The translations under genes were made by a program, and so were the position numbers. A stretch of DNA of 64,000 nucleotides from a virus. The notes beneath the pieces were generated by a model. That model worked only from the letters and a program-made list of their open reading frames with translations. It did no database searches and had not been told where the DNA came from. This document shows, one piece after another, positions 2,844 to 51,491 of the stretch (the first letter of the stretch is position 1; every line of letters starts with the position of its first letter). The DNA lies in the IMG/VR virus record IMGVR_UViG_3300025101_002824, positions 32,001 to 96,000 of that record; one strand, written 5' to 3'.

Positions 2844-5800
2844 ATGGCGAGAAAACTCAAAAAATTAGCAAAAGCGCAAAAGGGTTATGTTGGTGAAGTA
2901 GAAGATGGAACATTTATGTTAAATCCAGATGTAGCTTATACTTCTAGCAGAGGTGTTCCTGGTGGTAAACCGCAATATCAAGCAGTAATTTATTATGATC
3001 CTAGAGATCCAGAAGGTTACTTTTCAAGTGACCTAGAAAGAATGACTCCTGAGTTAAACGAGAGATATGGAGTTGGTAATTGGATTGCAAGACCATTACC
3101 TAATGTAGCTCTTAGTGATACTTATCAAACTATTGCTGATGAAAATGAAGCAAATTCGTATTTAAAACAAACAAGAAAAAAAAGAGAAGAGATACGAAAA
3201 CAATTTGGTGACTTAGAGCTAGATTTATATAAAAGAAAAGAAGGTTTAGAGGGTTATAATGAAGCTGACTATGATCCAGAATCTAAAGAAATTATTGAAT
3301 TACAAAATAAACTAAGAAGATTAGGAAAAGAAGAAGAGGAGTTAATGAAAACATTATCACCATTAACATATTCGGATCAAGACCATTTCTATAACGTTAA
3401 TAAAGGAGAATTTAAATTATTAGATGACGCATTATTTGAAAGCAAAGATCATTTAAACTATATATTAAATGAAATAAAACTAGCAGAACTAGAAGAACAA
3501 GAACAACAATATATAAGTCCTGTTGATGCAACAAATAAATATTTTCAAGATATAAAAAACTTAAGCCCTACTGGTGATATTATTATAATGCAACATGGTA
3601 CAAGTAAAGTTGGACCAATAATGTATGGTGAACAAGAAAGAAAACATTTTGGTTATGATCAAACACCTGGTCTTACAGATACATTTGCTGAAGTAATTAA
3701 TGAAACTTTTGATGATGCTTCTGGTATTACATGTTATATGGGTGTATGCAAAAAAAGTGATGCTGGTCAAAGATTAGCTGATGAAACTAATATGAAAGTA
3801 AATGTTGCTAGTGGTAATCAATGGTCAGGTTATCAAACAAATTTTGGAGATACATTTATAGATAGATTTTTTGGTACTGGATCTGAGAGACCAGATGTTA
3901 ATTACGGAGCACTATACGGATATGATACTTATGATGGATCAGGTGCAATAGCTAATAAAAATTATGGAGGTGATATAGATTATGGTATTACACCAAATGC
4001 ATCAGATACATTTTCTGGATATAGTAATCAAACTGCACCTCCAGTAGAAATTATATCAGATGCTGATTATGCAGCTCAACAAAGGCAAGATTTAATAAAT
4101 CAATCTGTTGCTTCAAACCAAAATCAAGGCGTTATATATAGTAAAAATCAACAGAATTTAGATAGACTTAAAAAAAGTAATTCGTTAGTAGCTCTCTATT
4201 CAGGACTTAAAGATACATATGATGCTTTAACAGATGATGGTAAGTACGGGGGATCTTTACCTAAACTTCAACCAGGGGGTAAAGCAGGTTTATTAAAATA
4301 CGGTATAAATGCTCTTAAATATACACCTAAAAAAATTAGACCGGATTTACTTAAATTAATTAGAACTAATAATCCTAATTTAGATCTTAGAGGAATAAAT
4401 CAAACTTTTGATTTTAATCCTCAACTTATAGGAGTTAATGAGCTAAACTTAAAAGGAATTGATTTTGGAAATCTTACAGATTATGAAAAGGCTGTAATAT
4501 CAAATATAAATCAACCTGATTTTCAACCTGTAGGTAATTTTGCTGATCTTGCAAAAAATTATTCACAATTTAATGTTGATAAAAATTTTGCTATAGATGC
4601 AGCTAACATGGCTGTAGACTTAAAAGAAATAAATCCTAAGTTTTATATAGAGTTACTTACAAAAGGAAAACCTTCTTCTTTTATGAATGAGATATTTGCT
4701 GATCCTAGAATTCCTATTTTTAATGCAAGGAATCCTGTAATTGGAAATCAAGAAATAGATTGGGATAATAGACATGCTACCAAACTTAGAGATAATTTTA
4801 CTAATGAGTTTGAAAAAAATCTAAGGTCATATGGTAAATATGGATTTTATGCTAGCGGTGTTCCATTACAAGGTGCTACTTCATTTCAAAGATTAACTAG
4901 CAATCCTAAAAATAGATTTAACAATTTTAGCTTTAAGACTAAACCTTATGGAGAAAATGTAAGTTATGTACAAGAACCTTCATACCAATATATAGATATA
5001 AATACTCCTGTAGCTGATTATGTTGTAAATGCTGGTTTAATGAATGTTGATCCAATTACAAATTTAGCTACTTTTAGAGGACGTGGTGAAATGGCTAATC
5101 AACATAATTTTTTATTAGGTCGTACCAATAGTCCATCATTAATTTTATCAGGTGATGAAGGATTTGCAAATACATCTGGAGGTAATACAATAAGAAAAAA
5201 TATAGCAGGAATAAGTACTCCAGGTCGTGGAAAGAATGTACTTGATATAAATGCTCAAATAGCACCACTTCTAACAGAAAAATTTAGTCTAAATACTCCT
5301 TTTGAAGGAACTTTTATGAAATTTCCAAGAATTCAAACTTATAGAAGAAAAACAGATGGTAGTATGCCACGTAAAAGTTTTATAAGTGATTACCTTGGAC
5401 GTGAGTTTGAACTTAGTGACTGGGATTATAAAGCATTTGTAGAAGATCCTAACATGCCTCTTCTTGAACGTAATCTAACAAGAGAAGAATTTAATTTATT
5501 AGATCCATTTAAAAAACGTCAATATTTTGATGAGCAAGGAATTTTATTTGATCCACTTGAAAGTTTATATAAAAAAGAAGGAGGAGCATTAGCAAAAGCA
5601 CAAAAAGGTAAAATTGTTACAAGGTTGGCAGATAACTTTTTTAGTGGTTTTAATAATATGATTACTAAAAAACCTTTTTTACCTGTTAAGCAGTTTGATA
5701 AATTTTTATTAAAGAATTTTAATAAAGGTGAGGCAATGTTTATTGAAAACACATTAAAAAATAATCCTAGCCTTATATCTAATAACCAAATAGATTTATC

Positions 5801-8800
5801 TAAACTAAAAGAACAAAGTTTTTCAGATTTAGCAGTAACAAATCATGCATTTCAACCTCTATTAAATAATTTAGATGCTCGTATGATAGATGGTACACAA
5901 GGTTTTAGATCTAAATGGACCGGTATGGAAAGTTCTGATGGAGCAGATTTTGGATTATATAGATACCCAGATCTTTTACCTTCACAATTTAGTTACTTAC
6001 CAGGAGGCTTTACAGAATTTAAAGGAACTAGAATTACACCTACAAATTATTCTGTTTCTATGCCAAATTTATTAAAAAAACCATATTTAGATAGTCATCA
6101 TGATGGATTACATATATTAGATCCATTAGCTATGGGATGGGTAAGAGGATTTGTAGATGCTGAAAACCCAGGGTTATTTATACTTAAAGAATTACAGACA
6201 GATATAAATAAAGATCCTATGTTTGATTTTTTAAGTAATAAAAATCGTTCTGAATTATTAAAAATAAAACCTCAAGTTGAAAAAAGAAATGATAAATATT
6301 TTAGCAATTTAAATGATATAAATAATAAAATAAATAATATTCAACAAAGAAAAAATGAAATATTTGGACTAGATGAATTTGCTGATGAATATAATGCTTT
6401 AGATATACAACAACAAGAATTAGCAAGACTAGCTCAAACTGGTGAAAATCTTTACCCAACATCTAGAAGAATTATGGATAATTCTGATCTTAATTTAGAG
6501 AGTTTAATTCCAATGTCTAGAATAGGGTCTAAACCATATTACAGATTTGAAAATGAAACATTAAACTTTTTACAAAATTCAGGATTTAATAAAATTGTAA
6601 TACCAAATGCTACAAGTATAAGTAATATACAAGGATGGAATGCTATGGATGGTTTAACAAAAAGTCAAAAAGGTACATTAGGTTATTATAGCAACTTACA
6701 AAAAAATCCACAATTAATAAATACAGGTAATACATATGATTTAGATAATTATAGTGGTACTATATTTGATTTACAACGTAAATCTTATAATCCATTTAAA
6801 GAGTATGGTGGACAAACTGAAGGTTATGCTTTAGATGATACACCTGATGATATAAAATATAAAACAGGTGGTCAAACATTTACTATAAAAAAAGCTCAAA
6901 AAGGAAATGCAGAAGTTACTTTTAAAGATGAATATGAACAATTTGAAAACTTTATACAAGAAGAAGAAACAAGTTGGGATTATGTAAAAAATAAAGATTC
7001 AGCAGTATTAAAACCTGATGGCAAAACATATTATAAAGTATATGAAGATGGTAAGTTTTACCCATATTATCATCAAAATTCAAATGGTACATATGAATCA
7101 GAAGCTACAATAGGTTTTGGTAGAAAAGGAGCAGATATTTTTGATACATATAAATCAGGATTATCATTAGAAGATGCTGAATTATTTAGAAAAGAAGATA
7201 TAGATAACGCATTAAGAAAAACTAAAATTTTTATTGATGCTAATTATGGAGAAACTGCATATGATAATTTACCTGCTAGAACTAAATTTATGCTTGCAGA
7301 TTATACATATAATCTTGGTAAATTAAGTAAATATCCAAAATTTGCTGATGCTATTATGACTAATAATATTGATAAAGCATTAGCAGAATATATTAGAAAT
7401 GATGAAAAAGGTGGTTCACCATTAGCTAGAAATGAAGGATATTTAAATATGTATTTACAACCATGGATAAATAATATAAATGAAGAAGAATTAAAAAGAC
7501 AAGAAGCTAATTTAAAAATGATTCAAGAATTACAAAATCAAACTGTAATTCCAGCAGATAATACTATGATTGGTACAAATCCATTTGGTGGTTTTAAAGA
7601 TGGGGGTGAACTTTTTAAAGCTCAACCAGGTACAGAAGTTAATCTGGCTGAAACATATAAATATATACCATCAGAATTTCTTAATGTGCCAGAAGGAGAG
7701 TTTACATTTGATTATAAAAATAAAGATGGTAATGTAGAAACTAGAACAGGTGTTTATAATCCACAATGGTTTGAACAAGGGTTTGAAGATTCAGATGCTT
7801 ATAATGCTTTAAGTGATGATGAAAAAATAACCTTTGCTAATAATCCATATATAAATAATGAAGGTGATATGGTTCATCCTCTATTGTGGAATAAAGAAAC
7901 TTTAGAAAAAGAAAATAAAAAAAGATTTCTTCATGGATTATATCAAAAAATGTATACCAAACAAGATGATGGTAGTTACATTTTAAATCCAGAATATGAA
8001 ACTGCGCTAGGTGATGCTAGGTATCTTACTACAACAGATGTTCCATATTCAGAAATTCTAGATGATGGGGCATTTTCTAGTACATTAGCTGCTGATCCAA
8101 ATAATACAAGTTGGTATAGAGAATTAAAACCAGAGATTTTTACTGATGGTAAAACAACGACAGGATACACATGGGATAAAGATAGTCAAGAGTTTGTACG
8201 TACATCAAATATGACATATAAAGATTTGGTAAAACAGTACAAATACATTAAAAATATGCCTGGAATGGAAGGCATTTCTAAAAAAGAATATAAAAACAGA
8301 TTACAACAAGGAGATATATATTGGCCTCAACTTCAAAGTCCAGCACAAGAAGCACAGTTTCAAGAGCAATATAAATCAATAATGAATCCAATTAAAAAGG
8401 AAGATGTACAATTACAAAAAGATTTTTATGATAATGCTATAAGTGGAGATTTATATAAACAAAAATTAATTAATCAAGGTTATGAGAATGTTGATGAAAT
8501 TATAGACATGAGAAAAGATGCTTTAGCTAATTCTAAAGTAATGTATGATGCAGATTCTAATTCTTACAGAGATGAGGCTTATGATGATGATCCTAATTTA
8601 ATTAAAAAAATTCTTGATAAAGTAACTTTTTTAAATGATCAGTATAAAGATTCAGGTATAGATTATAATTATAAAGATGTATTTTTTGCAAATCCTTATT
8701 ATACAAGAATAGGTGAAGAAAGAACAGAAGCAGATCTAAATTATGACAGCAGAAAAATAAGAAATGAAGCTGAACCAAATATATTTACTGATGATCAATT

Positions 8801-11057
8801 TCAAGCTATAATACAATCACAATATGGTCACCTAGATGTTCCAGCATTTAGAGAGCTTAGAAATAAATTAATGAGAGGTGAAACAGGCAGTAGAGCTTAT
8901 ACATCAGGATCAAGACAAGGAGATGTTGTATTAGATCCAAGACAAATTCAAGGTTTAAATATAGATATGGGTTTTGAAGGAACTCCTGCTGAATTAAAAT
9001 CACAATTAGAAGCAACATTAGCCCATGAGCTTGGTCATCAAATGGGTTCAAGTAAGTATATTAAAGATTTTAATTTAAATGATGCTGATTATAATTATAT
9101 ACAAAGTAAAATGAATGTTTCTGATGATGCAAATTCTCATGATAAATCTGTATATGAAAGAAAAGCAGATTTAGAAGCTTTAAGATATGATATGTATAAA
9201 ACTATAGGATTTAATTATGGTACAGATGTTTTAACTCCTGAAATACTTGAACAATATAAACAATACATTAAAAATAATCCTAATCCTAATTTACCAACTG
9301 AAAGAATGTTTCAGTTTTTTAATGATCAAGATATTATAGATATTAATAATACTGTAGCACAAAATTATGAAATAGGTGATGATATTGGTGATCCAATGAG
9401 TGTTAAGTATGGAGGTTCATTACCAAAAGCACAAATGTATAACTCTGAAACGCCAAGCTTTGGTGAAATAGCATTAGCATTAGAAAGACAAAAAAGATTA
9501 TATGAACCTTACGGTGGTTATGAGAATTTTGTTAAAATGGATGATTTTAATAGGTATCAAGGATATTTAAAAGATGGTGATATAGAATCTGCTAATCTTT
9601 TATTTCCACAATTTGCTAATATGAGTTTTGGTGATTATTATGGTCAAACTAGAGATAATTTAACTGCAGCACAAAATACACAAAATCCATATCTTCGTTC
9701 TAATCTTACAAATAAAGATGCAAATAATTTTGAGTTTACATATAAAGGTAAACCATATCATCCATATTCATATGAAGAAGTAGCTACTCCTCAATTTACA
9801 GAAGTAATGCAATTTTTAGATGAAGAAATAAAAAAATATGATGGAACTCAAGAAAATAGTAATATATTTCAAAATAGAGGAGACTTATTAAAATATATTA
9901 ATGAACAATTTCCAGAAGGATCAAAAGAAAGAGCATATATAAATTATAATAAATCTGTTCAAGACGGAATTAATTCAATGGTTTCAGGTTATGATCAAAA
10001 TTTACCATATGTACCAGAAGGATTTGATTTTGATAAAGATTATAATTATGAAAATATTAATATTGATTTTAATAATAATAATTTAAATAATCCTTATATA
10101 AATAATCTTAATACTCTTCCGCCAGATAATACAAGAGTAGTTACAAATCAAGTTAATTTTAATGATATACAAAAACTAAATAATAATCGTTCAAATCAAA
10201 CATTTATAAGTCAAGATAATAGAACTATTGGAGAAAGACAACGGGCTGCAGAATATACAGAAGCATATAAACAACATGAAGAACGGATGAAAAAAGGTAT
10301 AGCACCTAATATGATGTGGTTATATTCAACTGCACCAGCTTTTCAAGGTGCAGGTGGATATGAAAGAGCTGTAGAAGATTATAATTATAATCCAATTAAT
10401 GCATGGTCACCAATAGAAATTGCAGCTAGTACAGTTTTACCTTTTAAAGGTTATAATACAGTTATGTCTACACCTTTAAATGTAGTAAAAAATATACCAG
10501 GCAGAATAAAAAATGTAATTAAAGGTACAAGAGGAAGTGTACCATCAACAACAGTTAGAGGTAGTTCTATTAATCCTGTTACAGGCAGATCTTTAACATT
10601 TGGAGATTTAGCTAATGTAGGATGGGGTACTAATGCTGCAGTAAATACATTTCCTAATGCAATTAGTAATTTTCAAGAAGGTGATATTACTTCAGGTTTA
10701 GCAAATACTGCATTTGGAACATTTGAGTTAACTGGAGTACCTAGTAGTTTACTAAGAGGTTATAAAACATTACCTAATGCTGCAAAAGTATTTGGAAGTG
10801 GAAATATAGTTCCAACAACTGCTAGTGGATTACTTAATAAATATCCTAATTTAAAATATAATGAAAATATAGGAATGTTTAATACTGTTGGTAATAATCC
10901 TAATTTAAGAACATTTACAGGTATAAACCCACAATTTAATAAATCCTATGATAATATTATAGGACCAAGTATTGGACAATTACCATTATTTAAACCACAT
11001 CCATTTTATAAAGGACCTACACAATCACAATTTAGATCAATATTAAGGAACCAATAA
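2844..11057 (+). CDS. 2737-aa modular (polyvalent) putative virion cargo protein: His/Cys protease-like, T4-lysozyme-like and HExxH zincin modules separated by GG..KAQ linkers
   Basis: IIIMQHG...CYMGVC (3594/3747); ELQTD (6189); ATIGFG...LADYTYNLG...DKALAE (from 7107); LAHELGH...YERKAD (9024); six linker copies. Confidence 0.8.
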   Translation: MARKLKKLAKAQKGYVGEVEDGTFMLNPDVAYTSSRGVPGGKPQYQAVIYYDPRDPEGYFSSDLERMTPELNERYGVGNWIARPLPNVALSDTYQTIADENEANSYLKQTRKKREEIRKQFGDLELDLYKRKEGLEGYNEADYDPESKEIIELQNKLRRLGKEEEELMKTLSPLTYSDQDHFYNVNKGEFKLLDDALFESKDHLNYILNEIKLAELEEQEQQYISPVDATNKYFQDIKNLSPTGDIIIMQHGTSKVGPIMYGEQERKHFGYDQTPGLTDTFAEVINETFDDASGITCYMGVCKKSDAGQRLADETNMKVNVASGNQWSGYQTNFGDTFIDRFFGTGSERPDVNYGALYGYDTYDGSGAIANKNYGGDIDYGITPNASDTFSGYSNQTAPPVEIISDADYAAQQRQDLINQSVASNQNQGVIYSKNQQNLDRLKKSNSLVALYSGLKDTYDALTDDGKYGGSLPKLQPGGKAGLLKYGINALKYTPKKIRPDLLKLIRTNNPNLDLRGINQTFDFNPQLIGVNELNLKGIDFGNLTDYEKAVISNINQPDFQPVGNFADLAKNYSQFNVDKNFAIDAANMAVDLKEINPKFYIELLTKGKPSSFMNEIFADPRIPIFNARNPVIGNQEIDWDNRHATKLRDNFTNEFEKNLRSYGKYGFYASGVPLQGATSFQRLTSNPKNRFNNFSFKTKPYGENVSYVQEPSYQYIDINTPVADYVVNAGLMNVDPITNLATFRGRGEMANQHNFLLGRTNSPSLILSGDEGFANTSGGNTIRKNIAGISTPGRGKNVLDINAQIAPLLTEKFSLNTPFEGTFMKFPRIQTYRRKTDGSMPRKSFISDYLGREFELSDWDYKAFVEDPNMPLLERNLTREEFNLLDPFKKRQYFDEQGILFDPLESLYKKEGGALAKAQKGKIVTRLADNFFSGFNNMITKKPFLPVKQFDKFLLKNFNKGEAMFIENTLKNNPSLISNNQIDLSKLKEQSFSDLAVTNHAFQPLLNNLDARMIDGTQGFRSKWTGMESSDGADFGLYRYPDLLPSQFSYLPGGFTEFKGTRITPTNYSVSMPNLLKKPYLDSHHDGLHILDPLAMGWVRGFVDAENPGLFILKELQTDINKDPMFDFLSNKNRSELLKIKPQVEKRNDKYFSNLNDINNKINNIQQRKNEIFGLDEFADEYNALDIQQQELARLAQTGENLYPTSRRIMDNSDLNLESLIPMSRIGSKPYYRFENETLNFLQNSGFNKIVIPNATSISNIQGWNAMDGLTKSQKGTLGYYSNLQKNPQLINTGNTYDLDNYSGTIFDLQRKSYNPFKEYGGQTEGYALDDTPDDIKYKTGGQTFTIKKAQKGNAEVTFKDEYEQFENFIQEEETSWDYVKNKDSAVLKPDGKTYYKVYEDGKFYPYYHQNSNGTYESEATIGFGRKGADIFDTYKSGLSLEDAELFRKEDIDNALRKTKIFIDANYGETAYDNLPARTKFMLADYTYNLGKLSKYPKFADAIMTNNIDKALAEYIRNDEKGGSPLARNEGYLNMYLQPWINNINEEELKRQEANLKMIQELQNQTVIPADNTMIGTNPFGGFKDGGELFKAQPGTEVNLAETYKYIPSEFLNVPEGEFTFDYKNKDGNVETRTGVYNPQWFEQGFEDSDAYNALSDDEKITFANNPYINNEGDMVHPLLWNKETLEKENKKRFLHGLYQKMYTKQDDGSYILNPEYETALGDARYLTTTDVPYSEILDDGAFSSTLAADPNNTSWYRELKPEIFTDGKTTTGYTWDKDSQEFVRTSNMTYKDLVKQYKYIKNMPGMEGISKKEYKNRLQQGDIYWPQLQSPAQEAQFQEQYKSIMNPIKKEDVQLQKDFYDNAISGDLYKQKLINQGYENVDEIIDMRKDALANSKVMYDADSNSYRDEAYDDDPNLIKKILDKVTFLNDQYKDSGIDYNYKDVFFANPYYTRIGEERTEADLNYDSRKIRNEAEPNIFTDDQFQAIIQSQYGHLDVPAFRELRNKLMRGETGSRAYTSGSRQGDVVLDPRQIQGLNIDMGFEGTPAELKSQLEATLAHELGHQMGSSKYIKDFNLNDADYNYIQSKMNVSDDANSHDKSVYERKADLEALRYDMYKTIGFNYGTDVLTPEILEQYKQYIKNNPNPNLPTERMFQFFNDQDIIDINNTVAQNYEIGDDIGDPMSVKYGGSLPKAQMYNSETPSFGEIALALERQKRLYEPYGGYENFVKMDDFNRYQGYLKDGDIESANLLFPQFANMSFGDYYGQTRDNLTAAQNTQNPYLRSNLTNKDANNFEFTYKGKPYHPYSYEEVATPQFTEVMQFLDEEIKKYDGTQENSNIFQNRGDLLKYINEQFPEGSKERAYINYNKSVQDGINSMVSGYDQNLPYVPEGFDFDKDYNYENINIDFNNNNLNNPYINNLNTLPPDNTRVVTNQVNFNDIQKLNNNRSNQTFISQDNRTIGERQRAAEYTEAYKQHEERMKKGIAPNMMWLYSTAPAFQGAGGYERAVEDYNYNPINAWSPIEIAASTVLPFKGYNTVMSTPLNVVKNIPGRIKNVIKGTRGSVPSTTVRGSSINPVTGRSLTFGDLANVGWGTNAAVNTFPNAISNFQEGDITSGLANTAFGTFELTGVPSSLLRGYKTLPNAAKVFGSGNIVPTTASGLLNKYPNLKYNENIGMFNTVGNNPNLRTFTGINPQFNKSYDNIIGPSIGQLPLFKPHPFYKGPTQSQFRSILRNQ

Positions 11058-11429: not shown

Positions 11430-12095
11430 ATGCCAACGGCAAATAAAGCAAAGACTCCTCCAAAAGGAGCAATCAGATTTTCAATTTCACTATCTGATGA
11501 GCAAAAAAAAGCAAAAGCAGAAATTTTAAAAACACCTTATAATTTTATTGTAGGTAGAGCTGGTAGCGGTAAAACATTACTTGCAGTACAAATAGCTTTA
11601 GATCAATTTTTTAAAAGACAATACAATAAAATAATTATAACAAGACCTACTGTTTCTACTGAAGATAATGGGTTTTTACCTGGTTCTGAACGTGAAAAAA
11701 TGGAACCTTGGCTAGTACCAATTAGATCTAATATGAGAAAGGTTTATAACAAACCTCAACTTTTAGATAAAATGGAAAAGGATGAAACTATAGAATTATG
11801 CTCTCTGGCGCATTTTAGAGGCCGTACATTTGATAACTCTATTGTAATAGTAGATGAGTTCCAAAACTTAACTAGAAGTCAATTAGCAATGGCTATTGGA
11901 AGACTAGGTAAAGACTCTAAAATGATTTTTTGTGGTGATTCATATCAAATAGATTTAAAAGATAAGAACTATTCAGCATATCATGATATGTCAAAACTAG
12001 TAAATTCAAAACATGTATTTAAAACTGTATTAGAAGATTCACATAGACATGATGCAATAGAAGAACTACTTGATCTTTTAAACGGTTATCACTAA
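11430..12095 (+). CDS. phoH: PhoH-family ATPase
   Basis: GRAGSGKT Walker A, ITRP, GFLPG, FRGRTF, IVDEFQN, RLG and GDSYQID are the PhoH signature motifs. Confidence 0.95.
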   Translation: MPTANKAKTPPKGAIRFSISLSDEQKKAKAEILKTPYNFIVGRAGSGKTLLAVQIALDQFFKRQYNKIIITRPTVSTEDNGFLPGSEREKMEPWLVPIRSNMRKVYNKPQLLDKMEKDETIELCSLAHFRGRTFDNSIVIVDEFQNLTRSQLAMAIGRLGKDSKMIFCGDSYQIDLKDKNYSAYHDMSKLVNSKHVFKTVLEDSHRHDAIEELLDLLNGYH

Positions 12096-35171: not shown

Positions 35172-36353
35172 ATGGAATCATTTATAGACAAAATTAAAGG
35201 ATCATTTAAATGGAAAAAAACATCAGACTATTGTGCTGATAAATTAGGAATAACTGTTGAAGATTATGAAGTATTAAAATCTTGGGTTAAATCTACAGAA
35301 TTAATAGAAAACAGTAATTCATCATATGAGTATAATTTAGAAAAAGGTGAAGCAAAAATGGAGACAATAAGTTCTTCTGAACCAAAGTCACCTGAAGAAA
35401 TAATTAAAATGTTAAACATTGATACTACTCAATGGAAACTTTCAAGTTATTGGAATAAACAAATGGGTGATCATTGGCGTGTATCTGCAATGGTTACTAA
35501 AATAAAAGATAATGAAGTTGATAATATAGCTGAATTATTAAAAGAGTTTAAGCCTAAAAAATTTAAGCCAGTAAAAAGAATTAAAACTCCAGGTAAAGTA
35601 AAAACAGCTGGAGTTTTGTCTTTACAAGATATACATTTTGGTAAAGAAGGAAATGAAACAATTGATAAATGTTTTGAAGAAACAATTATTGATTTAGTTG
35701 AAAGAGCTACAAGTGCTCATCATTTAGAAAAAATATACTACGTAGTAGGAGGGGATCTTATAAACATGGATACATGGAGTGGTAGTACTACTAGTGGTAC
35801 ACCATTAGATAACTGTATGACTGCTACAGAAGCTTACATGCAGGCTTTTAATGCTATACAATGGAGTATAAATTATATTAAACAATTTTGTGATACTTTA
35901 CAAGTAGTATATATACCAGGTAATCATGATAGACTTTCCTCTTTTCATTTAGCACATGGTCTATCTAAATGTTTTGATGATGCAAATATTGAATGGGATG
36001 TAGTTTATCTTGAGAGAAAAGTATTTACATATGGAGATAACTTTTTTGCATTTGAACATGGTGATGTAAATACTAAAAATTCTTTAATGTTATACTCTAT
36101 GGAATATCCAAGAGAATGGGGTAAGACATTATTTAGAACCTTATACACAGGACATTATCATCATAAGAAAAAAATAGAATACATAACAGCTCATGAAAAT
36201 ACAGGTTTTATGTTAAAAATATTACCAAGTTTATCAAGAACTGATTATTATCATTATCATAATAAATTTGTTGGATCTAGAAGATCTGGGGTACTATCTA
36301 TACATAGTCCTAACAAAGGAGAAATATGTGAGTTAACATATTCTCCTGAATAA
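35172..36353 (+). CDS. Calcineurin-like metallophosphoesterase
   Basis: DIHFG, GGDL, GNHD, HGD and GHYH: all five family motifs. Confidence 0.9.
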   Translation: MESFIDKIKGSFKWKKTSDYCADKLGITVEDYEVLKSWVKSTELIENSNSSYEYNLEKGEAKMETISSSEPKSPEEIIKMLNIDTTQWKLSSYWNKQMGDHWRVSAMVTKIKDNEVDNIAELLKEFKPKKFKPVKRIKTPGKVKTAGVLSLQDIHFGKEGNETIDKCFEETIIDLVERATSAHHLEKIYYVVGGDLINMDTWSGSTTSGTPLDNCMTATEAYMQAFNAIQWSINYIKQFCDTLQVVYIPGNHDRLSSFHLAHGLSKCFDDANIEWDVVYLERKVFTYGDNFFAFEHGDVNTKNSLMLYSMEYPREWGKTLFRTLYTGHYHHKKKIEYITAHENTGFMLKILPSLSRTDYYHYHNKFVGSRRSGVLSIHSPNKGEICELTYSPE

Positions 36354-44400: not shown

Positions 44401-46920
44401 TTTGTAACACCTGTTGATGCAACTATATTTGGTGCTGTAACTCAGGGTGGTGGTATATGGAATCCTCAAGCAGTTCCAGGAGGAAATTTTGCATGGTTAT
44501 CAGGTGATGCAGTTGATGCATCTCAATATTCAAAAGCTTGGATATATAAATTAGATTTACCATCAGGATGTACAAAATTTAGAATGACAGGTACTAACAA
44601 TGGTGCTGGTTTTGCAGGTCTTGCTGCTGCTGTTATTGATGTTAATGATTATCAAGATATACAAGATGCTACATCATGGGAATCTTTACCTAAATTATGG
44701 GATTCTGAAACTTATGATTTTATTGTTCCTGGAACTACTACTGATTTTAGATGTCCTCCAAACTTTACAATATTTACTGACGGTACAGATGGTAGTACAG
44801 AAGAGTGTCCAGTATGTAGAGAAGATATAATAATATATAATTGTGATTGTATGACAGATCCAACATCTAATATACCAGGTGTATTAATAGGAACATGTCC
44901 AGATGCATTTGGTAATGCTGGATCATCTTATTGTCAATACGAAGGATATGCTGATGTTGAAATGATTGATCAAACTTATCCTATAGAAGTATTAGATACT
45001 AATTACTTTAAAGATATATCTTGGACTATTAGTTATGATCCAAAAACTAAAGCATGGTTATCTTTCCATGATTGGCATCCTAAGTTAGCATTTAATAGTA
45101 TAAGACATTTCTTAACTACTAATACTGAAATGACAGAAGTTCCTCAATGTCCAGATGGATATACATGGAATGGTACAAGATGTTGTTTATCATTACATCA
45201 TGAAGAGTTAGCAGAAGTTAATGTAACTGAATTTTTATCTACAGTTGAAAGTACACCAGCAACTGTACAAGCATTTTCTGAAACAATGGATATTGTTATT
45301 GTAATAGATTTTTCAACATCTATGAGAAACAATGGTGGAATTGGAGCAGCAATGCAATTTGTATCAACATTTGTAAGCGGTATGGCTCCAGGTATGTTAG
45401 GAGGTCCATATGCAGGTCAAGTAAGAATAGGACATGGTAGATGGGGTAGTGGTTCTGCATCTGCGTCTCCTCCAGGAGATCCTGCACAAATAGTAGGTTT
45501 AACTGATGATCCAGCTATAGCTGGTGGAAGTCTTACTGCTACTAATACTCCAATAGGTCAAACACAATATTGGCCACAAAGTGGAACAACCTTTAATGAT
45601 GGTATAGATCTTGCTAATACTATGCTTACAGGAAGTACAGCTCAACAAAAAATTGTTATATTTGTTACTGATGCAGGTAGTGCTCCAAATAATCCAACAA
45701 ATTTAGCAAATGCTACACAATTAATAGCATTATTTGTTGATAATGCAACTAGTGCAAATAATTGTAGTACTACTACTGGTTATGGTGATGATCTTGGACC
45801 TTTAATTACAGATACAGGTTTACCATCAAATCCGGCATATGATGTTGTAAGATGCGCAAATGTTGGAACTCTTCCAAGAAACGTATATCATATAGGGTCA
45901 GGTATTGATCCTGGTGAAGAAGGACATGCAGCTTCAGTTGCACAAGATTTAGTTCAATCTTTTACACAATGTACATGTACACAAGGAATAATTGATACAA
46001 GTCCTCTTAATCCTCCATGTTTACCTTTACCATCACCTCCACCACAATGTATAACTTGTTCTTGTCCTCCAGGATTTACTTTAATTGGTACTTGTGATAA
46101 TTCACAAAATCCACCAATATGTAGAAAAATGGATTGTGAATGTACAAGTCCTTTATTTAATCCAGATGAAGACTTAACAATAAGTGGAGAATGTGATGAT
46201 ATTGTACAATATTTTAATCCATTAACTGGAACAGGTAATCCAACTTATGTAAATACTAATCCTTTATTTTGTATATATGATTATGAAGATTGTGTACCTG
46301 CTAATTATGAATTAGGATTCTTTTGGAAACATAATATTAGAACTGATTTATTTAATAATTATTATGATAAAAATTATCCTTGGGAAGTAGATATAATTGA
46401 AACTACTGGTCAGCAAGTTACTACATTAAGAAGTATAGAATATCAAATGGAAGCTTATTTATATCAAAATGAAGGTAAAGATAGATTCCATGATTTAGAT
46501 TATAATTTTGATGAAGCTGTTATTTATAATTCAGAACAAGTATCAGGATTATTAGAATTAGAATTAGAACCAAAAAATAATGTTCAATTGTCAATGTTAT
46601 ATCCTATTGTTGGACCTAACAGTATAAGAACATTGTTTAGTAAAGTTGAACAAAAATATAGATTTAATCAATTTTTTGATATTACTGCTGACAGAGGAGA
46701 GTTTACAGCAGCAACTAATACAATTTGGGAAACAGATTGGGATGGATATGTTAGAACATTAAACCCAGCTAATTTAAATTATAATAAAGCACAACATCAA
46801 AGAAAGAAATTTAGACATTACTTTAATCATGTGCTATTAAGAAAATCAGATGAAGCTGCTACAACTAGAAAGATGTTATTAAAATTAGAGAATACTAAAT
46901 TAAATGTATCATTTAGATAA
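38500..46920 (+). CDS. Muzzle/tail stabilisation protein (P22 gp10-like) with large insertions including a VWA domain
   Basis: FIKGMNKD N-terminus, EYGSCES, ISDQGMKWW and WTISYDPKTKAWLSFHDW core motifs; DIVIVIDFSTSM MIDAS motif at 45307. Confidence 0.75.
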   Translation: MAKKQQKNTGGKKTPKRQNTDIVNTNAFIKGMNKDTDSGYFDKQSWYHARNLINNSVDGDLGVVGNEPANLRCAKIPYTVIGGIHLYGDQWVIYSTNDILSEIGLFDDSECKYTTLVNDDCLNFNKDNLIIGAAKENFDCTWQVYWDDGLNPSRTLNIDNIPYVQIVDPNTPAGSTCINYINAEPLMLDCERIRLAPLIDIPCIKLEKADQGGLLENGSYQVYAAYCINEKPVTDYLGISNIQPIWSREDTQGSLTIELSNLDTEFDQLQIVVRSRIKGQATNTVLGLYSTETKSINIDYINAELPKVLSSTLQRRIPTYEKSEGMFVVNDYLIRSQPTEQFDFNYQPLANNIQTYWTSTQYPSNYYREGGNKPTLLRDEQYAFFIRFIYNTGEKSASYHIPGRAPTAADELPIGGAGNNFDNSPTWRAGNTASSQPGNPFVASLLGTNTDDGGTIIDGGLMGFWESTEVYSPTDPTRYGNLCGQPIRHHKIPDETVPGIGTTLTGAGETIHVIGAAFDNIAPPVDNDGNVIPNIIGYEILVGSRAGNRSILAKGIMKHMFRFRRTQNDGIRNAQGSPDNFASGTGLMPNYPFNDLRADPYLIGRDSNSISQLPWYAQFGTAPEENWHRGNTNQADGLEFNTVDARTFTFHSPELNFSRLYLNPTTVKIYKTVSGIVLGRFKKSEEHPRMKLLKNRAATVAALVGVGYALAEMRGKRNYKIDTMQSTSIGEFGAHALGSGSHMSPFVGPGTGLAAANVGASSASIWLGAAADVGFNTLVDIGAIFGAGKVVRQVGTPIYQQVEVASTAAAAGHIGPKRSIQYMGSDFSSIPSLMSIAIGIISFLNYVAVGGDKIIDLILNLIGFQNYAMKYISHGYYQNETPFLGTQFRQSVDRARYIKSAIQSFDGQDVIYNNLRPSTVVFKVANPWGDSLPGINGGPIDNTKFTIGAGANGCAGNGNNSMSWYNPGEEVESTAVAHYMSFKTLMDNQYGQLDSIIQLTTQNCFYFRTQQNVDPDGNILPIISQDRFSTDTVYAGDSYICRYTEKSIMPFFFDFLKEGRDGIPFDYSKYANVPFPRFWMNSEKFRMDQFVRPITSLRFRWNGTEALPSGYYNMDCPENGGYCAPQGVFQPGTIGTGLGANFGEGGAAGSTQQDGSSAGSGAINQNQTGFTQSSAVGGAAWDDPNDDWNLENSMAAYNNRFQVINISGNGNGGSDIPYNINMGSNSERWSIIGAGQDVITITPAAGVLNPVPTNPANPPGPALAAAVETTPNFNITIEDHSYSVPLDSPGNGPSITKQCGCDFVSFVREDTDDSTFTPSLFSDFGTATARLIWDWSSGTFIGMTNVATGFYASNDPTITAGGTGNPSDVLTSSANFTFQSGLLTNQVQDGFPFVCNNTAIMGQGAFQFPNAQATPGGANDISAANQRNGVQAGGPGDPQALADNAEQAAQDSVFVTGNQPGAVGAGGTATGGLFVIKTGYMYTHNCGINDFWVESSMNLAYRDYEDVARKQHYDDENFTDLVELFHAKIVNLDNYYFYDRSTSVDKFWGSSWGRIQPSYYDPLIAENCFIKYPKRLLYSVPATGFKDKATLSNKNDAKQDFWRVYLTENFRDFKAKVTTIKPINETGALIFFPTMSPKMFQGQDRLQLSNTKLTIGDGGLFSQAFQNITNSDVSHEYGSCESARSVLNTPFGIFFVSQAQGKIFQYRPGGGLTPISDQGMKWWMNKFLPSKLLEYFPLIEDCPEAVDNPVNGAGIQTVYDPNNDIVYFCKKDFIPLPQFQDNDCIEYIPCEGFVYNATNCEGLPQVPSCPEGYTLIQDPVTGQDVCQLLYTEEPIILATEQFNYGAGIAIGTDLGFGNNGTARYGVDWPIVIDDVFTDGMPTNQADPNTWHYITDNGSNAWWRNANPTNGTNGIINRLMRGAAGTPGGQFAQAEFQINIPTAKTVHILLAADNAFALDLDTGTGYTNFVTPVDATIFGAVTQGGGIWNPQAVPGGNFAWLSGDAVDASQYSKAWIYKLDLPSGCTKFRMTGTNNGAGFAGLAAAVIDVNDYQDIQDATSWESLPKLWDSETYDFIVPGTTTDFRCPPNFTIFTDGTDGSTEECPVCREDIIIYNCDCMTDPTSNIPGVLIGTCPDAFGNAGSSYCQYEGYADVEMIDQTYPIEVLDTNYFKDISWTISYDPKTKAWLSFHDWHPKLAFNSIRHFLTTNTEMTEVPQCPDGYTWNGTRCCLSLHHEELAEVNVTEFLSTVESTPATVQAFSETMDIVIVIDFSTSMRNNGGIGAAMQFVSTFVSGMAPGMLGGPYAGQVRIGHGRWGSGSASASPPGDPAQIVGLTDDPAIAGGSLTATNTPIGQTQYWPQSGTTFNDGIDLANTMLTGSTAQQKIVIFVTDAGSAPNNPTNLANATQLIALFVDNATSANNCSTTTGYGDDLGPLITDTGLPSNPAYDVVRCANVGTLPRNVYHIGSGIDPGEEGHAASVAQDLVQSFTQCTCTQGIIDTSPLNPPCLPLPSPPPQCITCSCPPGFTLIGTCDNSQNPPICRKMDCECTSPLFNPDEDLTISGECDDIVQYFNPLTGTGNPTYVNTNPLFCIYDYEDCVPANYELGFFWKHNIRTDLFNNYYDKNYPWEVDIIETTGQQVTTLRSIEYQMEAYLYQNEGKDRFHDLDYNFDEAVIYNSEQVSGLLELELEPKNNVQLSMLYPIVGPNSIRTLFSKVEQKYRFNQFFDITADRGEFTAATNTIWETDWDGYVRTLNPANLNYNKAQHQRKKFRHYFNHVLLRKSDEAATTRKMLLKLENTKLNVSFR

Positions 46921-48461
46921 TGAAATATAGCAAGGACGGATATAAAAGAAATAGCAAGGATAAGAATAATCCTTATAATATAATACCATCAGGTAATATA
47001 ACTATGGAGGATGTAGATTTTCCTGTACTTGGTATGGATAACTTAGGTAATAGTAAAGTTATGATGCCAGGTGCTAATTATACATTTCCTGGCAATTCTG
47101 TTTTTGAAATACCAATGTTTTCTAATGGTGGACCTAAAAAAAATAAATATGGTCTTACATATAATCTTTTAAAAAGTTATATTGATAGAGGAAAATTAAA
47201 TTATGGTCTTATAAAACAACATCCTAGATTACTTATTCCTAGTACTATAAGAAATCAATATGATTTATATAAGTATATGAATACTGCAGATATGCGTGGT
47301 ATTACTGGTAGAAATCTTATAGACAATGTTACAATACCTATTCAAAAAGGCAGTAGTTTAATTCAGCATAGAGGTTTAAAAAATTCTTCTGAAATAGATG
47401 AATCTATGGAAAAGATATTAGCAGATTATACAATTAATTCTGCTCCTTTTAAATTTAGTTCATTTGATGGAAAATCAGGATATGTGCCTCAAGGTGGTTT
47501 TCCAATGGTAAATACAGGAGATACTAGACCTTTTTTTATACAAGATGATTCATATGCAAAACTATTAGATGACTATTTAAAAAATAATAATATTAGTTGG
47601 AAAAGTTTAGATAGAGATAAACCTATAGAATTAAATAGAGCATTTGGAACATTTGATGTTACAAGTTCTTCTGGCGGAAGTTTACAAGATTATATAGATA
47701 GATTAAAATCAGGAGAAGTTTTTAGTTTAGGAGATATAACATCTTGGTCAATTGGTAAACCTTTACCACAATTTGGTAGTCAGAGATTTTTAATTAAAAA
47801 TTTTCCAACTAATAGAAATGCGTTTGTAAATAGACCTGATTTAAATAAATTTTTAACTAGAAATCAAAAACAATCATTTGTTGAAACAGAATTATTATTA
47901 CCAAGTGATACAAAATTTAAAGTAACTAATTTAATTAAAAAGTCACCAAGACAGCCTCTTGAATATAAAAAAGATAGCAAAGGTTTAATTTATGATCCAG
48001 TACCACAATGGGGAACAGATATTGAATTAGAAGTACAAAAAAAAGGTGGTGAAAAAAAATCTAAATATGTTAAATCTCCTTTTACAAAAGGAAAATTATC
48101 TTTAGCAAATACAGATGGTTTAATAAATAAAATGATTAATCAGGGTATTTTTAAATCTGAATTTGCAATGGGAGGACAGTTAAAATTAAATAATGGATAT
48201 ACAGTAAAAAAACATTTTGATAAATTAAAAGACATACCTTATATATCATATACAAAACAACCTGATATAGAAGGAAGAGTATACTATGATTCAGATAGCA
48301 CAGATGTTTTAGATGATTTTAACATTATAGATGTTGAATCAAATTTAATTAAAAAACAAAGAAAACATAAAAGAACTAAAGATATAATATTAAAATATAA
48401 AAACGGAAATAATCTTACACAAACAGAAAAAGCACATTTAAACTCATTAGGGTTATTGTAG
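46920..48461 (+). CDS. Putative virion protein with an R-S-E ADP-ribosyltransferase domain
   Basis: LNRAFG (R 47637), ITSWS (S 47742), ETELLLP...FKV (E-x-E 47883-47891); TAATG-coupled to the muzzle gene. Confidence 0.65.
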   Translation: MKYSKDGYKRNSKDKNNPYNIIPSGNITMEDVDFPVLGMDNLGNSKVMMPGANYTFPGNSVFEIPMFSNGGPKKNKYGLTYNLLKSYIDRGKLNYGLIKQHPRLLIPSTIRNQYDLYKYMNTADMRGITGRNLIDNVTIPIQKGSSLIQHRGLKNSSEIDESMEKILADYTINSAPFKFSSFDGKSGYVPQGGFPMVNTGDTRPFFIQDDSYAKLLDDYLKNNNISWKSLDRDKPIELNRAFGTFDVTSSSGGSLQDYIDRLKSGEVFSLGDITSWSIGKPLPQFGSQRFLIKNFPTNRNAFVNRPDLNKFLTRNQKQSFVETELLLPSDTKFKVTNLIKKSPRQPLEYKKDSKGLIYDPVPQWGTDIELEVQKKGGEKKSKYVKSPFTKGKLSLANTDGLINKMINQGIFKSEFAMGGQLKLNNGYTVKKHFDKLKDIPYISYTKQPDIEGRVYYDSDSTDVLDDFNIIDVESNLIKKQRKHKRTKDIILKYKNGNNLTQTEKAHLNSLGLL

Positions 48462-48527: not shown

Positions 48528-51491
48528 ATGAAAAGAAATAAAAAAAATAATCAAAAACAAACTTTTGACGTTTATCCAATGTTATCTGATTATCAATATG
48601 TTACAGGTATACCTATGATGCAAAATGGATCTGAATTTTTTAGCTATGATGACTACATGACTGATTTAGTATTGGCAAATACTGGTACAGAAACACCTAC
48701 ACCTTTTATTCCTAAATATAACATAGATAATAATTATACTCAAACAGGTGATATAGAATATGGTATACCAAAGTCAATAAGTACAGCTAATCCATTATTA
48801 AATCTTGCTAGTAGTTTAACTAAATTTAAAAATCTTGGTACAGATTTTAAAAATGCACTTGGAAATATAAATCCTAGAACAGGTTTACCTTTTAAAAAAT
48901 CTGACTTTGCAAGAACTACACTTACTAATACAACAGATGAAAATGTAATATTAGATGGAGAGGGTTTTAAAAATTTATATGATAAATCAGGAAATATAAA
49001 TCAAGATGCAAATACTGCTGAAAATTTGTTTATGACTCAAGATGAAGCTAAACAAAAATACTTTAATACATTAGCAAAACAACATTCAGAAACATATCTT
49101 GATAATGATGGAAATTCATTATTAAGTAAACAAGTAATGAATGATGATGGAACTATTTCTTATGCTGATATTACAAAACCTAATCCTAACTATGATCCTT
49201 CAAAACCAGAAGGACCTGGTAATGAAAAAACTATAACAGTCCCTTTTACAGATGCTGATAAAACTGCAGGTGATATAGCACAAGAAAATGTAAAAGATAT
49301 TAATGTACAAAGTTTGTTATATAACGATGACTTAACTGAAGTTACTAAATTATCAAGAGTAACAAATACAGGTGAAAAAGAAATAGCAGATTATGATGCA
49401 GATAAAATAGCAACAGAAGGAACATATAATTTTAATGTGCAAGAAAATATTGGTCAAGATCCAATTGATGATAGATATTTAATGGCTGGAGGAAGTTTTC
49501 CAAGAAATAATCTTTCTGCTTTTGTATATGGAGGAGAAGAAATACCTGAAGCACAGTTTGGAAAAAGTAATTTTAGAAACTATACATTAAGAGATCCTAA
49601 TTTTACTATAGGAACTAAAACTATAGCTCCAATAAACAGAATAACAAGAAACTTACCATTTGGTGCTGTTGATAAAGGTGTTCAACAAGGATACGGATTT
49701 AATGCTAATATACCTCTTGTTTCAAGTCAATTACTTAAAACACCAACTTCACAATTAGTTGGTAATATAAATATAGGCACAAATGCATATAGAACACCAG
49801 GTAGTGAAAGATATGCTACAAAATATGTAGATTCAGATATGGACATTATGATGGAAAATGCACCTTTACATTTACAAAATGTACAATCTGCATATGGTGC
49901 ATATCAAGATTATTCTGCTCCTTATATGACTAATGTAGGTCAACGTATTGGTATTGGTGGTGATTATACTTATTCACCAAGAGGGCTTGGTAGAGATCTT
50001 GCTATTGATTTAGGTGCTGATCTTGGATTAAATTATAGTAGAGGTGAGCTTGGCTCTGACTTTGCATATGTAGATAAATTTGAAAATTTTCATGGTTTAG
50101 AAAATGATGCAGCTATAAATATTTTTGACTCAGTAACACCTGAAATTGAAGGTAATTTATTTGGAGTTGATGCAGGAGCATACGCAGGTTTAAGAAATCA
50201 AAATACAGGACTTTCAGGAGGTATATATGGTAATTATGGTACAATGAGAACAATAAATCCAGGTATGCGTTTAGGTTTTAAAGGTAATATACCATTAATT
50301 AGAGGAAAGGGTAATATGCGTGGATTTAATATTTCAGCTAGTCCAGATATAAGTTATGATTTTCAATCAAACACACCTAGATATGGTTTTGGAATTAGTG
50401 CAGGATTTGAAGATGGAGGAGAAAATTTACAAAAATATCAAGGTGATGTAGGTCCAAGTGAAACAAATAAAGAGACATATATATTTAATGGTCAACAAGT
50501 TACTGAAGAAGAGTTTAATAGATTATCTAAAGAAAGTCAAAATGATTTTAATGAATTTAGAAATAATACTAATTCTGAAAGACAAAATTTTATGAACCAA
50601 ACACCATTTACCTCTTCACAAAATAATGAAGGGGTTGGTTCAGGCCCTACTAATCCAGGTGCTACAACTTCTGGACAATCAGTAAATCCTGTTGTAACTG
50701 CTCCTTCTATGAATGAAATTGCTGGTGGTACTCCATTAGATTTAGATTTACCAACTCCAGATTATATGAATCCTCTTGGAATGAATCAAGAAATACCAAC
50801 TAATCCTAATCAAGTTGATACATATGAAGTAAGTACTGAAGGTACACCTGTTGATAATACTGATATACCAGTTGTAGAACCAGAAGGACCAGCTGCTCCT
50901 GTAGAAATGAGTTTTAGTCAACCTGATCTTACTGATGAGCAAAAGGCTAATATGACTGAAGCAGAAATAAAAGCTTATGAAAGAAAACAAAAATTAGATT
51001 CAGCATATAATGAAGGTAATGCATTTATGAATACAGGTTTTGTAGGAACAGCTAAAAGAGTATTTGGAGAAGCTGCTAAAGCTGCTACAATGGGTGCAGA
51101 TTCAATAAATTATTTTGCAGGCTATGGTGACATGTTAAAAAATGAATTAGAAACAGATAATGAACAAGATGAAATAGGTGATTTTGTTAATCCTATTGAA
51201 GCTAGTAGAGGTGATAAAGGTGATTATGGTGTAAACTCAGGAGCGTATAGAGTTAATAGTTTAGGTTATGGTGATGGACCTAGAGGTCAAATTGCACAAA
51301 TGGGTACAGAAACAAATGGTATGCCTAAGCCAGATTATAGTTCGTTACAACAATTTTTAAATCAAACTATAGTTTCTTATGATCCTAAATTTTTAATGAT
51401 GCAGGCAAAAAATGGTGAAGAGATTATAGATGCAGACATGGAACTAATTAAACAACTAATGGCAGCGGGGGCTGACTTTGAAATAATGTAG
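48528..51491 (+). CDS. Putative cargo protein with an internal outer-membrane beta-barrel-like module
   Basis: Alternating amphipathic strands RIGIGGDYTY, LGADLGLNY, FGVDAGAYAG, LSGGIYGNYG and RYGFGISAGF, flanked by GG linkers. Confidence 0.6.
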   Translation: MKRNKKNNQKQTFDVYPMLSDYQYVTGIPMMQNGSEFFSYDDYMTDLVLANTGTETPTPFIPKYNIDNNYTQTGDIEYGIPKSISTANPLLNLASSLTKFKNLGTDFKNALGNINPRTGLPFKKSDFARTTLTNTTDENVILDGEGFKNLYDKSGNINQDANTAENLFMTQDEAKQKYFNTLAKQHSETYLDNDGNSLLSKQVMNDDGTISYADITKPNPNYDPSKPEGPGNEKTITVPFTDADKTAGDIAQENVKDINVQSLLYNDDLTEVTKLSRVTNTGEKEIADYDADKIATEGTYNFNVQENIGQDPIDDRYLMAGGSFPRNNLSAFVYGGEEIPEAQFGKSNFRNYTLRDPNFTIGTKTIAPINRITRNLPFGAVDKGVQQGYGFNANIPLVSSQLLKTPTSQLVGNINIGTNAYRTPGSERYATKYVDSDMDIMMENAPLHLQNVQSAYGAYQDYSAPYMTNVGQRIGIGGDYTYSPRGLGRDLAIDLGADLGLNYSRGELGSDFAYVDKFENFHGLENDAAINIFDSVTPEIEGNLFGVDAGAYAGLRNQNTGLSGGIYGNYGTMRTINPGMRLGFKGNIPLIRGKGNMRGFNISASPDISYDFQSNTPRYGFGISAGFEDGGENLQKYQGDVGPSETNKETYIFNGQQVTEEEFNRLSKESQNDFNEFRNNTNSERQNFMNQTPFTSSQNNEGVGSGPTNPGATTSGQSVNPVVTAPSMNEIAGGTPLDLDLPTPDYMNPLGMNQEIPTNPNQVDTYEVSTEGTPVDNTDIPVVEPEGPAAPVEMSFSQPDLTDEQKANMTEAEIKAYERKQKLDSAYNEGNAFMNTGFVGTAKRVFGEAAKAATMGADSINYFAGYGDMLKNELETDNEQDEIGDFVNPIEASRGDKGDYGVNSGAYRVNSLGYGDGPRGQIAQMGTETNGMPKPDYSSLQQFLNQTIVSYDPKFLMMQAKNGEEIIDADMELIKQLMAAGADFEIM

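Follow-up and report, generated by a model that had tools for sequence, protein, structure and literature searches.

What does a short peptide do that stands at every joint of a giant phage protein? The question is raised by P0001, an open reading frame (ORF) of 2737 amino acids (aa) in a stretch of 64,000 nucleotides (the window) that comprises bases 32001–96000 of the virus record IMGVR_UViG_3300025101_002824, a genome of 114,084 bp with 30% GC and an estimated completeness of 99%. Positions below are those of the window unless the genome is named. The original prediction, made from the letters of the window, had described P0001 as a MARTX-like polyprotein of a crAss-like phage, punctuated by six related linkers and serving as a cassette-type payload whose linker would be a cleavage site or a capsid-loading signal. 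The novel element is the conserved junction peptide; the protein itself is closest to the known polyvalent and cargo proteins of phages.

A peptide repeated at the joints of P0001

All six linkers, numbered L0 to L5 from the N-terminus (Table 1), are copies of one short motif and lie within a few bases of where they had first been placed. Chance can be excluded as their source, since the pattern K[AL]Q.G occurs five times in P0001 against 0.096 expected from composition (Poisson P 6e-8) and GG.L.K[AL]Q four times against 0.0006 expected. No canonical copy is found in the six frames of the rest of the window, nor in the rest of the 114,084-bp genome. Two of the P0001 linkers have L-A in place of L-P. 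In AlphaFold2 models L0, L1 and L5 have predicted local distance difference test (pLDDT) values below 50 and no secondary structure, beside confident cores.

The six units so delimited measure 449, 427, 394, 224, 587 and 534 aa; the original prediction had given about 230–590 aa. Each recognisable domain lies inside one unit, as had been proposed: the His/Cys core (aa 228–346) in unit 1, the ELQTD block (around aa 1115) in unit 3, the lysozyme-like Pfam stretch (aa 1440–1508) in unit 4, and the HELGH motif together with Glu2105 in unit 5.

The junction motif in other phages

IMG/VR was scanned with the back-translated motif pattern, which returned at least 120 loci, and in nearly all of these the motif lies in frame in a long ORF (157–2689 aa, with 1–4 copies and 28–40% GC). 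From 119 non-redundant contexts the consensus reads [FYK]-[KQR]-x-G-G-x-L-P-K-A-Q-x-G. Information is restricted to these 13 positions, the 17 residues before and the 25 after them carrying none, which makes the junction peptide a short linear motif rather than a piece of a domain. Eight of its residues are invariant across these unrelated contexts. Synonymous codons at the invariant residues match background usage and the six copies in P0001 show no nucleotide similarity among them, so selection acts on the peptide. A DNA-level recombination signal, considered as a candidate explanation of the repeats, was rejected on the same two grounds.

The phage from which P0001 stems is crAss-like by its genes, as had been assumed: crAss-type terminase (15727), portal (18039) and major capsid protein (22267) genes follow the P0001 gene on the same strand, and the ORF at 38500–46920 is a muzzle gene with a Pfam crAss_MUZ match at 1e-28. 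The late block headed by the P0001 gene includes all four of these genes. CrAss-like neighbours were found at at least 86 of the at least 120 motif loci in IMG/VR, where motif-bearing genes occupy two places. One, called position A here, is upstream of small genes and the terminase and is the place of the P0001 gene; the other, position B, is the block directly after the muzzle gene and adjoins muzzle homologues at no fewer than about 45 loci among the IMG/VR matches listed. The position-A proteins all share a family N-terminus, M-x-[RK]-K-L-K-K-L-P-K-A-Q-x-G, which has no GG.

When the same pattern was run against 596 Gb of cellular genomes, the matches listed were chance-level single off-frame matches in GC-rich DNA, with the exception of a few low-GC, phage-like contigs; no host protein mimicked by the motif was seen among them, which is a weak negative. 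A linker profile searched against 5.8 billion proteins matched only unnamed metagenome proteins, whose precomputed domains include LysM, SLT, PG_binding_1, YkuD and SET, and ART-PolyVal was found at one motif locus. In single linker-bearing proteins, peptidoglycan modules (LysM, SLT, YkuD) occur together with a SET domain, and others have ART-PolyVal; peptidoglycan modules and SET or ART modules would act in different compartments. The SET domain, a lysine methyltransferase and unusual in phage cargo, occurs in the metagenome proteins P0040, P0050, P0052, P0056 and P0062, of which P0050 also has LysM and SLT. No description of the junction peptide was found in the literature searched, where 'LPKAQ' yields unrelated papers only.

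Several further occurrences of the motif were noted. A tape-measure protein (PHROG 3779 and 24; L025:760–3003, plus strand) has a copy with the full consensus, FRDGGILPKAQGG, some 100 aa ahead of its C-terminus; its contig is 14 kb long and without crAss markers, and the copy may be convergent or the motif may work outside crAss-like phages. At three loci (L088, L111, L119) very basic proteins of 250–280 aa that start MKTKCMSC.GP have two to four linker copies and one hydrophobic Gly/Ala-rich segment, their genes lying between the polyprotein and the terminase in relatives; the window holds no motif-bearing counterpart of them. Some cargo proteins (L249, P0024) have their stop codon at a decayed linker or immediately behind it (..GGWMDKYQ-stop; ..KKYGGSLPRYKLRRKI-stop), and those of L247 and L250 end in a zincin, a GGSLKKYS-type linker and some 40 aa of basic tail. 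These sequences suggest a wider motif family, GG-x-[LM]-x-K-[AY]-[QST].

Exchange of whole modules and the link to virion cargo

Relatives match 9–58% of P0001, and they do so in blocks. The closest relatives, P0003 and P0004 (86–87% identical), are without exactly unit 5, which is missing in its entirety, and P0009 and P0026 have from P0001 only unit 5, with 79–88% identity, behind a cargo N-domain. Units 1 and 4 are combined in P0010–12, units 2, 3 and 4 in P0005–8, and units 2 and 4 in P0013–15; unit 2 also stands at other positions in P0005–8, P0013–15, P0023, P0028/29, L030 and L064. Unit 6 is common to P0001 and P0003/4 (70–78% identity) and is found distantly in P0011, P0016/17 and P0028. 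Units are thus inserted, deleted or relocated whole among relatives. The genomic placement of P0003, P0005 and P0009 rests on IMG/VR loci, and a single-linkage clustering of the units merged nearly all of them and was dropped.

Of 104 internal homology breakpoints, 63 fall within 15 aa of a linker, against 9.8% expected by chance, and after collapse of duplicates 15 of 31 do so (binomial P 5e-8, with the events being phylogenetically non-independent). Whether related phages swap units at the linker had been named as a check on the original prediction, and the answer is yes, the homology breakpoints with relatives clustering at the linkers. Module homology starts 0–13 aa past a linker and often ends 24–100 aa short of the next, which argues that the tag behaves as the head of the downstream module, with a variable tail before the tag. 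L3 travels with the lysozyme-like unit, homology beginning at aa 1319–1321 in 11 relatives.

The exchange extends to the post-muzzle cargo genes. The gene that comes first behind the muzzle gene begins with an N-domain of about 70 aa that also heads about 30 motif-bearing cargo ORFs elsewhere among the matches listed, which suggests a position-specific anchoring or loading domain. In this phage the N-domain is followed by a degenerate linker, FSNGGPKKNKYG, and looser x-x-GG joints are found in this ORF (46920) and in that at 51494. The same N-domain heads P0009 and P0026, where unit 5 of P0001 follows, and P0031, which has a relative of unit 1; judged from these sequences, modules therefore appear to move between position A and the cargo block. 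Because of this traffic P0001 is probably itself a virion payload, its packaging being suggested by the modules it shares with the cargo block. Of the predicted cassette-type payload, the exchangeable modules are thus borne out, and the shared modules support the payload part.

Content of the modules

As a whole P0001 is poorly connected to known families: tblastn against 50,697 phage records gave no match, and searches with the whole protein found nothing in PHROGs and, in Pfam with E-values of up to 1 admitted, three sub-threshold matches only. Its homologues are all phage or metagenome proteins. Searches of the PDB with phmmer and profiles for units 1, 2, 3, 4 and 5 returned nothing usable, and matches to designed 'Pizza' proteins and to uL29 were set aside as artefacts.

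Unit 1 is probably a cysteine protease of clan CD, resembling family C80. Its conserved core (3525–3881) holds His251 (3594–3596), Cys297 (3732–3734) and Cys302 (3747–3749), which are invariant in five diverged members. In the structural model, with a mean pLDDT of 56 and 60–88 in the core, strand 240–249 ends in QH251G and strand 296–300 holds C297, the distance from His251 to Cys297/302 being 46–51 aa; this fits the layout of clan CD, in which His and then Cys each follow a beta-strand about 40–55 residues apart in an alpha/beta sandwich. The best structural match of the model is Tce1 (Z 9.8, root-mean-square deviation 3.5, 155 aa aligned), a putative cysteine protease resembling the cysteine protease domain (CPD) of TcdB/RtxA (PMC13323088), followed by SAVED-CHAT (Z 9.4) and by legumain and a Bacteroides C11 protease (Z 7.3–7.8). 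The fold call is moderate because a generic non-protease alpha/beta domain (GluA1 ATD) scores equally against the model. In the ESM Atlas a C80 cluster came up as a weak lead (score 0.77), and Pfam Peptidase_C80 has no match in P0001. The protease-like reading of unit 1 in the original prediction is therefore plausible. The family is rare, with 10 matches among 1.84 billion representatives.

Units 2, 3 and 6 match nothing known. The ELQTD domain announced for unit 3 does lie within one unit, as part of a block strongly conserved among relatives, but no known relative of it was found: no known family and, by the PDB searches, no solved structure matches it, and the ESM Atlas offers weak leads only. 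Unit 4 is weakly called lysozyme-like from its sequence, with Pfam matches in two of six members at E-values of 0.0058–0.036 for Pesticin and of 0.008 for Phage_lysozyme; all are below the cut-offs and a profile search of the PDB came back empty, so the lysozyme of the original prediction stands on sub-threshold matches and an invariant block. Unit 6 has no strong transmembrane helix.

A zincin next to the linker

The C-terminal part of unit 5 is, by its sequence signature, a gluzincin. The HExxH motif, a Glu 40 residues on (Glu2105, 9156–9158) and an Arg (Arg2114) are invariant in 14 zincin sequences, and a conserved helix, DQDIIDINNTVAQ, stands directly before L5. Relatives reach 29 bits for Peptidase_M91, above the cut-off (L245), E 0.003 for SprT-like and E 0.022 for MPTase-PolyVal (L010), and P0001 itself has only Reprolysin_3 at E 0.15; a Foldseek search with the zincin model gave no fold match. 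The zincin predicted for this unit is thus supported.

About 18 zincin modules were examined, and in every one a linker, intact or decayed, stands 10–25 aa beyond the conserved last helix, (D)DIIW(L)MNN(V/I)A; this fixed pairing in cis is the best hint that the zincin may act on the linker. In the AlphaFold2 model of the cis arrangement L5 is undocked on the zincin, and a complex prediction of the zincin domain with the L2 peptide scored 0.01 against a mark of 0.32, a result that counts neither way. The cargo zincin is present in 14 of 27 other motif-bearing phage records, and in 7 of the 16 that are at least 90% complete. A second zincin, of an RNA-polymerase polyprotein type, is present in 14 of the 27, and one or the other was detected in 21, in a search of limited sensitivity. 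The core of unit 1 was found in none of these 27 records (positive control, its own genome, 9.6e-62), and because of this the unit-1 protease is ruled out as the general enzyme of the linker.

The second zincin has a representative in this genome. An ORF of 5150 aa runs from 58323 past the end of the window (genome 90323 to about 105,770) and is probably the fused virion RNA-polymerase polyprotein of crAss-like phages; its zincin motif, YHEAFHAV (genome 96836), recurs in ORFs of 3400–5200 aa in 14 of the 27 related records. No LPKAQ-type linker was found in this ORF. A third HExxH motif (LMKHEILHVGFGH) lies in a minus-strand ORF of 395 aa at about genome 20762, 11.2 kb before the start of the window.

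Comparison with known systems

P0001 is most like the polyvalent proteins (Iyer, Burroughs, Anand, de Souza and Aravind, 2017; PMC5512222), which are likewise giant phage proteins encoded near virion genes, contain unrelated enzymatic modules including a zincin (MPTase) and lysozyme, and for which delivery along with the DNA and division into units by the zincin have likewise been proposed. They have at least two unrelated effector or enzymatic domains per polypeptide, and P0001 combines the CPD-like, lysozyme-like and gluzincin modules. In contrast, the paper on them (PMC5512222) describes no conserved inter-domain peptide, the word 'linker' being absent from it, whereas P0001 has the 13-residue motif at every joint. 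Most modules of P0001 match none of the described polyvalent domains.

The MARTX toxins of Vibrio are likewise arrays of swappable effectors with unstructured linkers, and the P0001 polypeptide also has a probable C80-like His/Cys domain. The likeness holds as an analogy of modular design and fails as family membership: there is no sequence relation, the Pfam scan, which covered the whole protein and admitted E-values up to 1, brought up no RTX-type repeat family, the CPD-like unit of P0001 is dispensable in relatives, and P0001 is a phage protein of a Bacteroidota-type virus and not a secreted toxin. The linkers of MARTX toxins are not known to share a long consensus.

Comparable too are the cargo proteins C1 and C2 (gp45, gp46) and the RNA-polymerase proteins of the Bacteroides phage crAss001, in which the muzzle gene is followed by cargo genes, as in this phage; short segments of the cargo dock inside portal and tail, and the cargo is ejected partly unfolded (Bayfield et al., 2023; PMC10172136). 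For crAss001 neither a junction motif nor shuffling of modules nor cleavage is described. P0001 differs in being encoded at the other end of the late block, and shares its modules and junction motif with the proteins of the post-muzzle block.

Two other virus systems offer parallels. In phage T4, the internal proteins and Alt, an injected ADP-ribosyltransferase, bear a short N-terminal capsid-targeting sequence that loads them into the prohead and is also the site of the prohead protease gp21. That signal is N-terminal only and reads L/I-x-E, in contrast to the P0001 signal, of which each joint between modules has a copy; among the ORFs scanned in this phage none was recognised as a prohead protease. 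The structural polyproteins pp220 and pp62 of African swine fever virus, and those of adenovirus, are cleaved within the particle, where a viral cysteine protease cuts behind a di-glycine. The viruses and proteases are unrelated to those discussed here, and the P0001 motif extends well beyond its GG.

What the junction peptide may do

The reading that we prefer, with a confidence that stops somewhat short of even, is that the motif is a processing site, possibly doubling as a tag. P0001 would then probably be a 'polyvalent' payload of a marine crAss-like phage, packed in the virion and ejected into a Bacteroidota host, with six independently folding, exchangeable modules strung on disordered spacers: a C80/clan-CD-like cysteine protease, two units whose fold is unknown, one lysozyme-like and one gluzincin unit and, at the C-terminus, a Gly/Asn-rich one. 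Cargo proteins in this phage group would share the motif as their junction code, and because every module begins with it, modules could be moved between cargo genes and still be handled alike. The handling may consist in cleavage by a cargo-borne peptidase, within the motif or beside it and either in the packaged protein or once it has been ejected, which would free envelope-directed and cytoplasm-directed modules separately. The best candidate for this peptidase would be the gluzincin, which always stands directly before a linker, and the plausible cut would be at the GG hinge, giving new N-termini x-LPKAQ-x-G whose sequence would imitate the native start of the protein, M-x-RKLKK-LPKAQ-x-G. 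In addition, the LPKAQxG half may act as a recognition or loading tag, by analogy with the capsid-targeting sequence of T4 internal proteins. Besides the pairing of zincin and linker, cutting is favoured by the detection of one or the other zincin in 21 of the 27 records and by the single linker-bearing proteins whose modules would act in different compartments. A literature search for proteolysis of crAss cargo found nothing; self-processing of polyvalent proteins by their MPTase (PMC5512222) and zincin cleavage of crAss polyproteins (10.1101/2020.03.07.982082) have already been proposed.

Several observations weigh against a processing site. No peptidase is universal with the motif, as the counts for the unit-1 core (0 of 27) and the cargo zincin (14 of 27, and 7 of 16 among the more complete records) show. 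The N-terminal copies lie 4–13 residues from the Met and are without the GG half, which fits a recognition tag better, and with 13 constrained positions the motif is longer than one would expect of a site for proteolysis. In this genome the RNA-polymerase polyprotein, for which cutting is expected in the literature, is without such a linker. As regards the role as payload, packaging is read from shared modules, and the P0001 gene lies outside the canonical cargo block, which stands directly downstream of the muzzle gene.

Some of these points speak for a tag that is never cleaved, a rather unlikely reading on balance but the strongest of the alternatives. LPKAQxG would then bind a conserved site, such as portal, tail-barrel rings, muzzle or scaffold, or lead the modules into the ejection channel; the GG would provide flexibility only, and the protein would stay in one piece and be ejected from N to C like beads on a string. 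The near confinement of the motif to cargo genes of crAss-like phages, which have a common virion architecture, is consistent with such docking, as are the dispensable GG half at the N-termini, the behaviour of the tag as the head of the downstream module and the failure to find a universal protease. P0001, moreover, is encoded far from the cargo block and has no cargo N-domain, so that the N-terminal LPKAQxG-type tag is the sole feature it has in common with all cargo proteins. In crAss001, short segments of gp45 are bound to portal, tail barrel and muzzle, with no cleavage reported (PMC10172136). However, docking leaves the strict pairing of zincin and linker in cis unexplained. The position-B cargo proteins of this phage have decayed linkers only, so the canonical tag is not needed there, and one full-consensus copy is found in the tape-measure protein whose contig lacks crAss markers.

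Cleavage at the linkers by unit 1 itself, as in a strict MARTX model in which the CPD-like protease would cut in cis, for example after the invariant Leu or Lys, is improbable. The invariant His251 and Cys297/302, placed after beta-strands at the spacing given above, the structural matches to Tce1, SAVED-CHAT, legumain and C11, the lead to the C80 cluster and the two P0001 linkers with L-A instead of L-P would suit such an enzyme. However, C80 enzymes cut Leu-Pro bonds poorly, the fold match is of middling quality, given the equal score of GluA1 ATD, and a domain this rare, which was found in none of the other motif-bearing records, cannot explain the conservation of the motif; it may be just another effector. 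Very improbable, finally, is a passive hinge or flexible spacer, or a DNA microhomology that promotes shuffling, for although shuffling does occur at the linkers and these are disordered, eight residues are kept invariant across 119 unrelated contexts, and with free synonymous sites and dissimilar copies recombination at the joints would at most be a by-product.

Features of the locus

The P0001 gene points away from a block of minus-strand genes, and some 36 kb separate it from the muzzle gene downstream. Downstream of the polyprotein gene, at 11430–12095, an ORF of 221 aa with a Walker A motif (GRAGSGKT), which we take to resemble a PhoH-like ATPase, is kept in nine related loci. A homologue of a DNA-repair exonuclease (PHROG 704, 7.5e-45) is encoded at 35172–36353 within the block of structural and tail genes.

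Table 1. Units and linkers of P0001 and features of the position-B cargo genes (window coordinates).
Feature	Position	Strand	Residues (aa)	Description
P0001 ORF	2844..11057	+	2737 aa	open frame; heads the long plus-strand late block; position A
L0	2856..2885	+	5–14	N-terminal copy LKKLAKAQKG, without the GG half
Unit 1	2886..4232	+		alpha/beta domain (~aa 43–375) with long helical hairpin insert
L1	4233..4283	+	464–480	DDGKYGGSLPKLQPGG; predicted disordered, pLDDT <50
Unit 2	4284..5564	+		no family match; exchangeable
L2	5565..5615	+	908–924	LYKKEGGALAKAQKGK
Unit 3	5616..6797	+		block DSHHDGLHILDP...LKELQTDINKDPMF, strongly conserved among relatives
L3	6798..6911	+	1319–1356	split/expanded, KEYGG...YKTGGQTFTIKKAQKG (split form KEYGG...GGQTFTIKKAQKG)
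Unit 4	6912..7583	+		possibly lysozyme-like; invariant E..ATIGFG block
L4	7584..7640	+	1581–1599	FGGFKDGGELFKAQPGT
Unit 5	7641..9401	+		predicted gluzincin in C-terminal part; HELGH aa 2061–2065 (9024–9038)
L5	9402..9452	+	2187–2203	SVKYGGSLPKAQMYN; predicted disordered, undocked on zincin
Unit 6	9453..11054	+		C-terminal; Asn-rich low-complexity stretch, then Gly/Ala/Thr-rich tail
First gene after muzzle gene	46920..48461	+		position B cargo gene; N-domain of ~70 aa (MKYSKDGYKRNSKD..NPYNIIPSGNITM..)
Degenerate linker	49521..49562	+		FVYGGEEIPEAQFG, in cargo ORF 48528–51491
Degenerate linker	50406..50444	+		FEDGGENLQKYQG, in cargo ORF 48528–51491

Implications

In its widest form, which we regard as unlikely, the motif would serve all marine Crassvirales as a 'cargo address and release' code that both loads the modules and sets the cut site. 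If this were true, any effector gaining the tag would become an injectable payload, which would explain the plug-and-play exchange of modules, and an address or release signal of this kind might be employed to bring foreign proteins into phage particles. The Crassvirales are among the most abundant phages, and the junction peptide gives a handle on how several megadaltons of injected protein are chosen, packed and released. It makes their payload repertoire definable from sequence alone, with proteases, peptidoglycan enzymes, SET and ART modules and many unknown folds, and it predicts the exact peptides to be sought by N-terminomics of virions. Beyond this, it shows the recruitment of new injected effectors by recombination at a joint that is defined at the level of the peptide.

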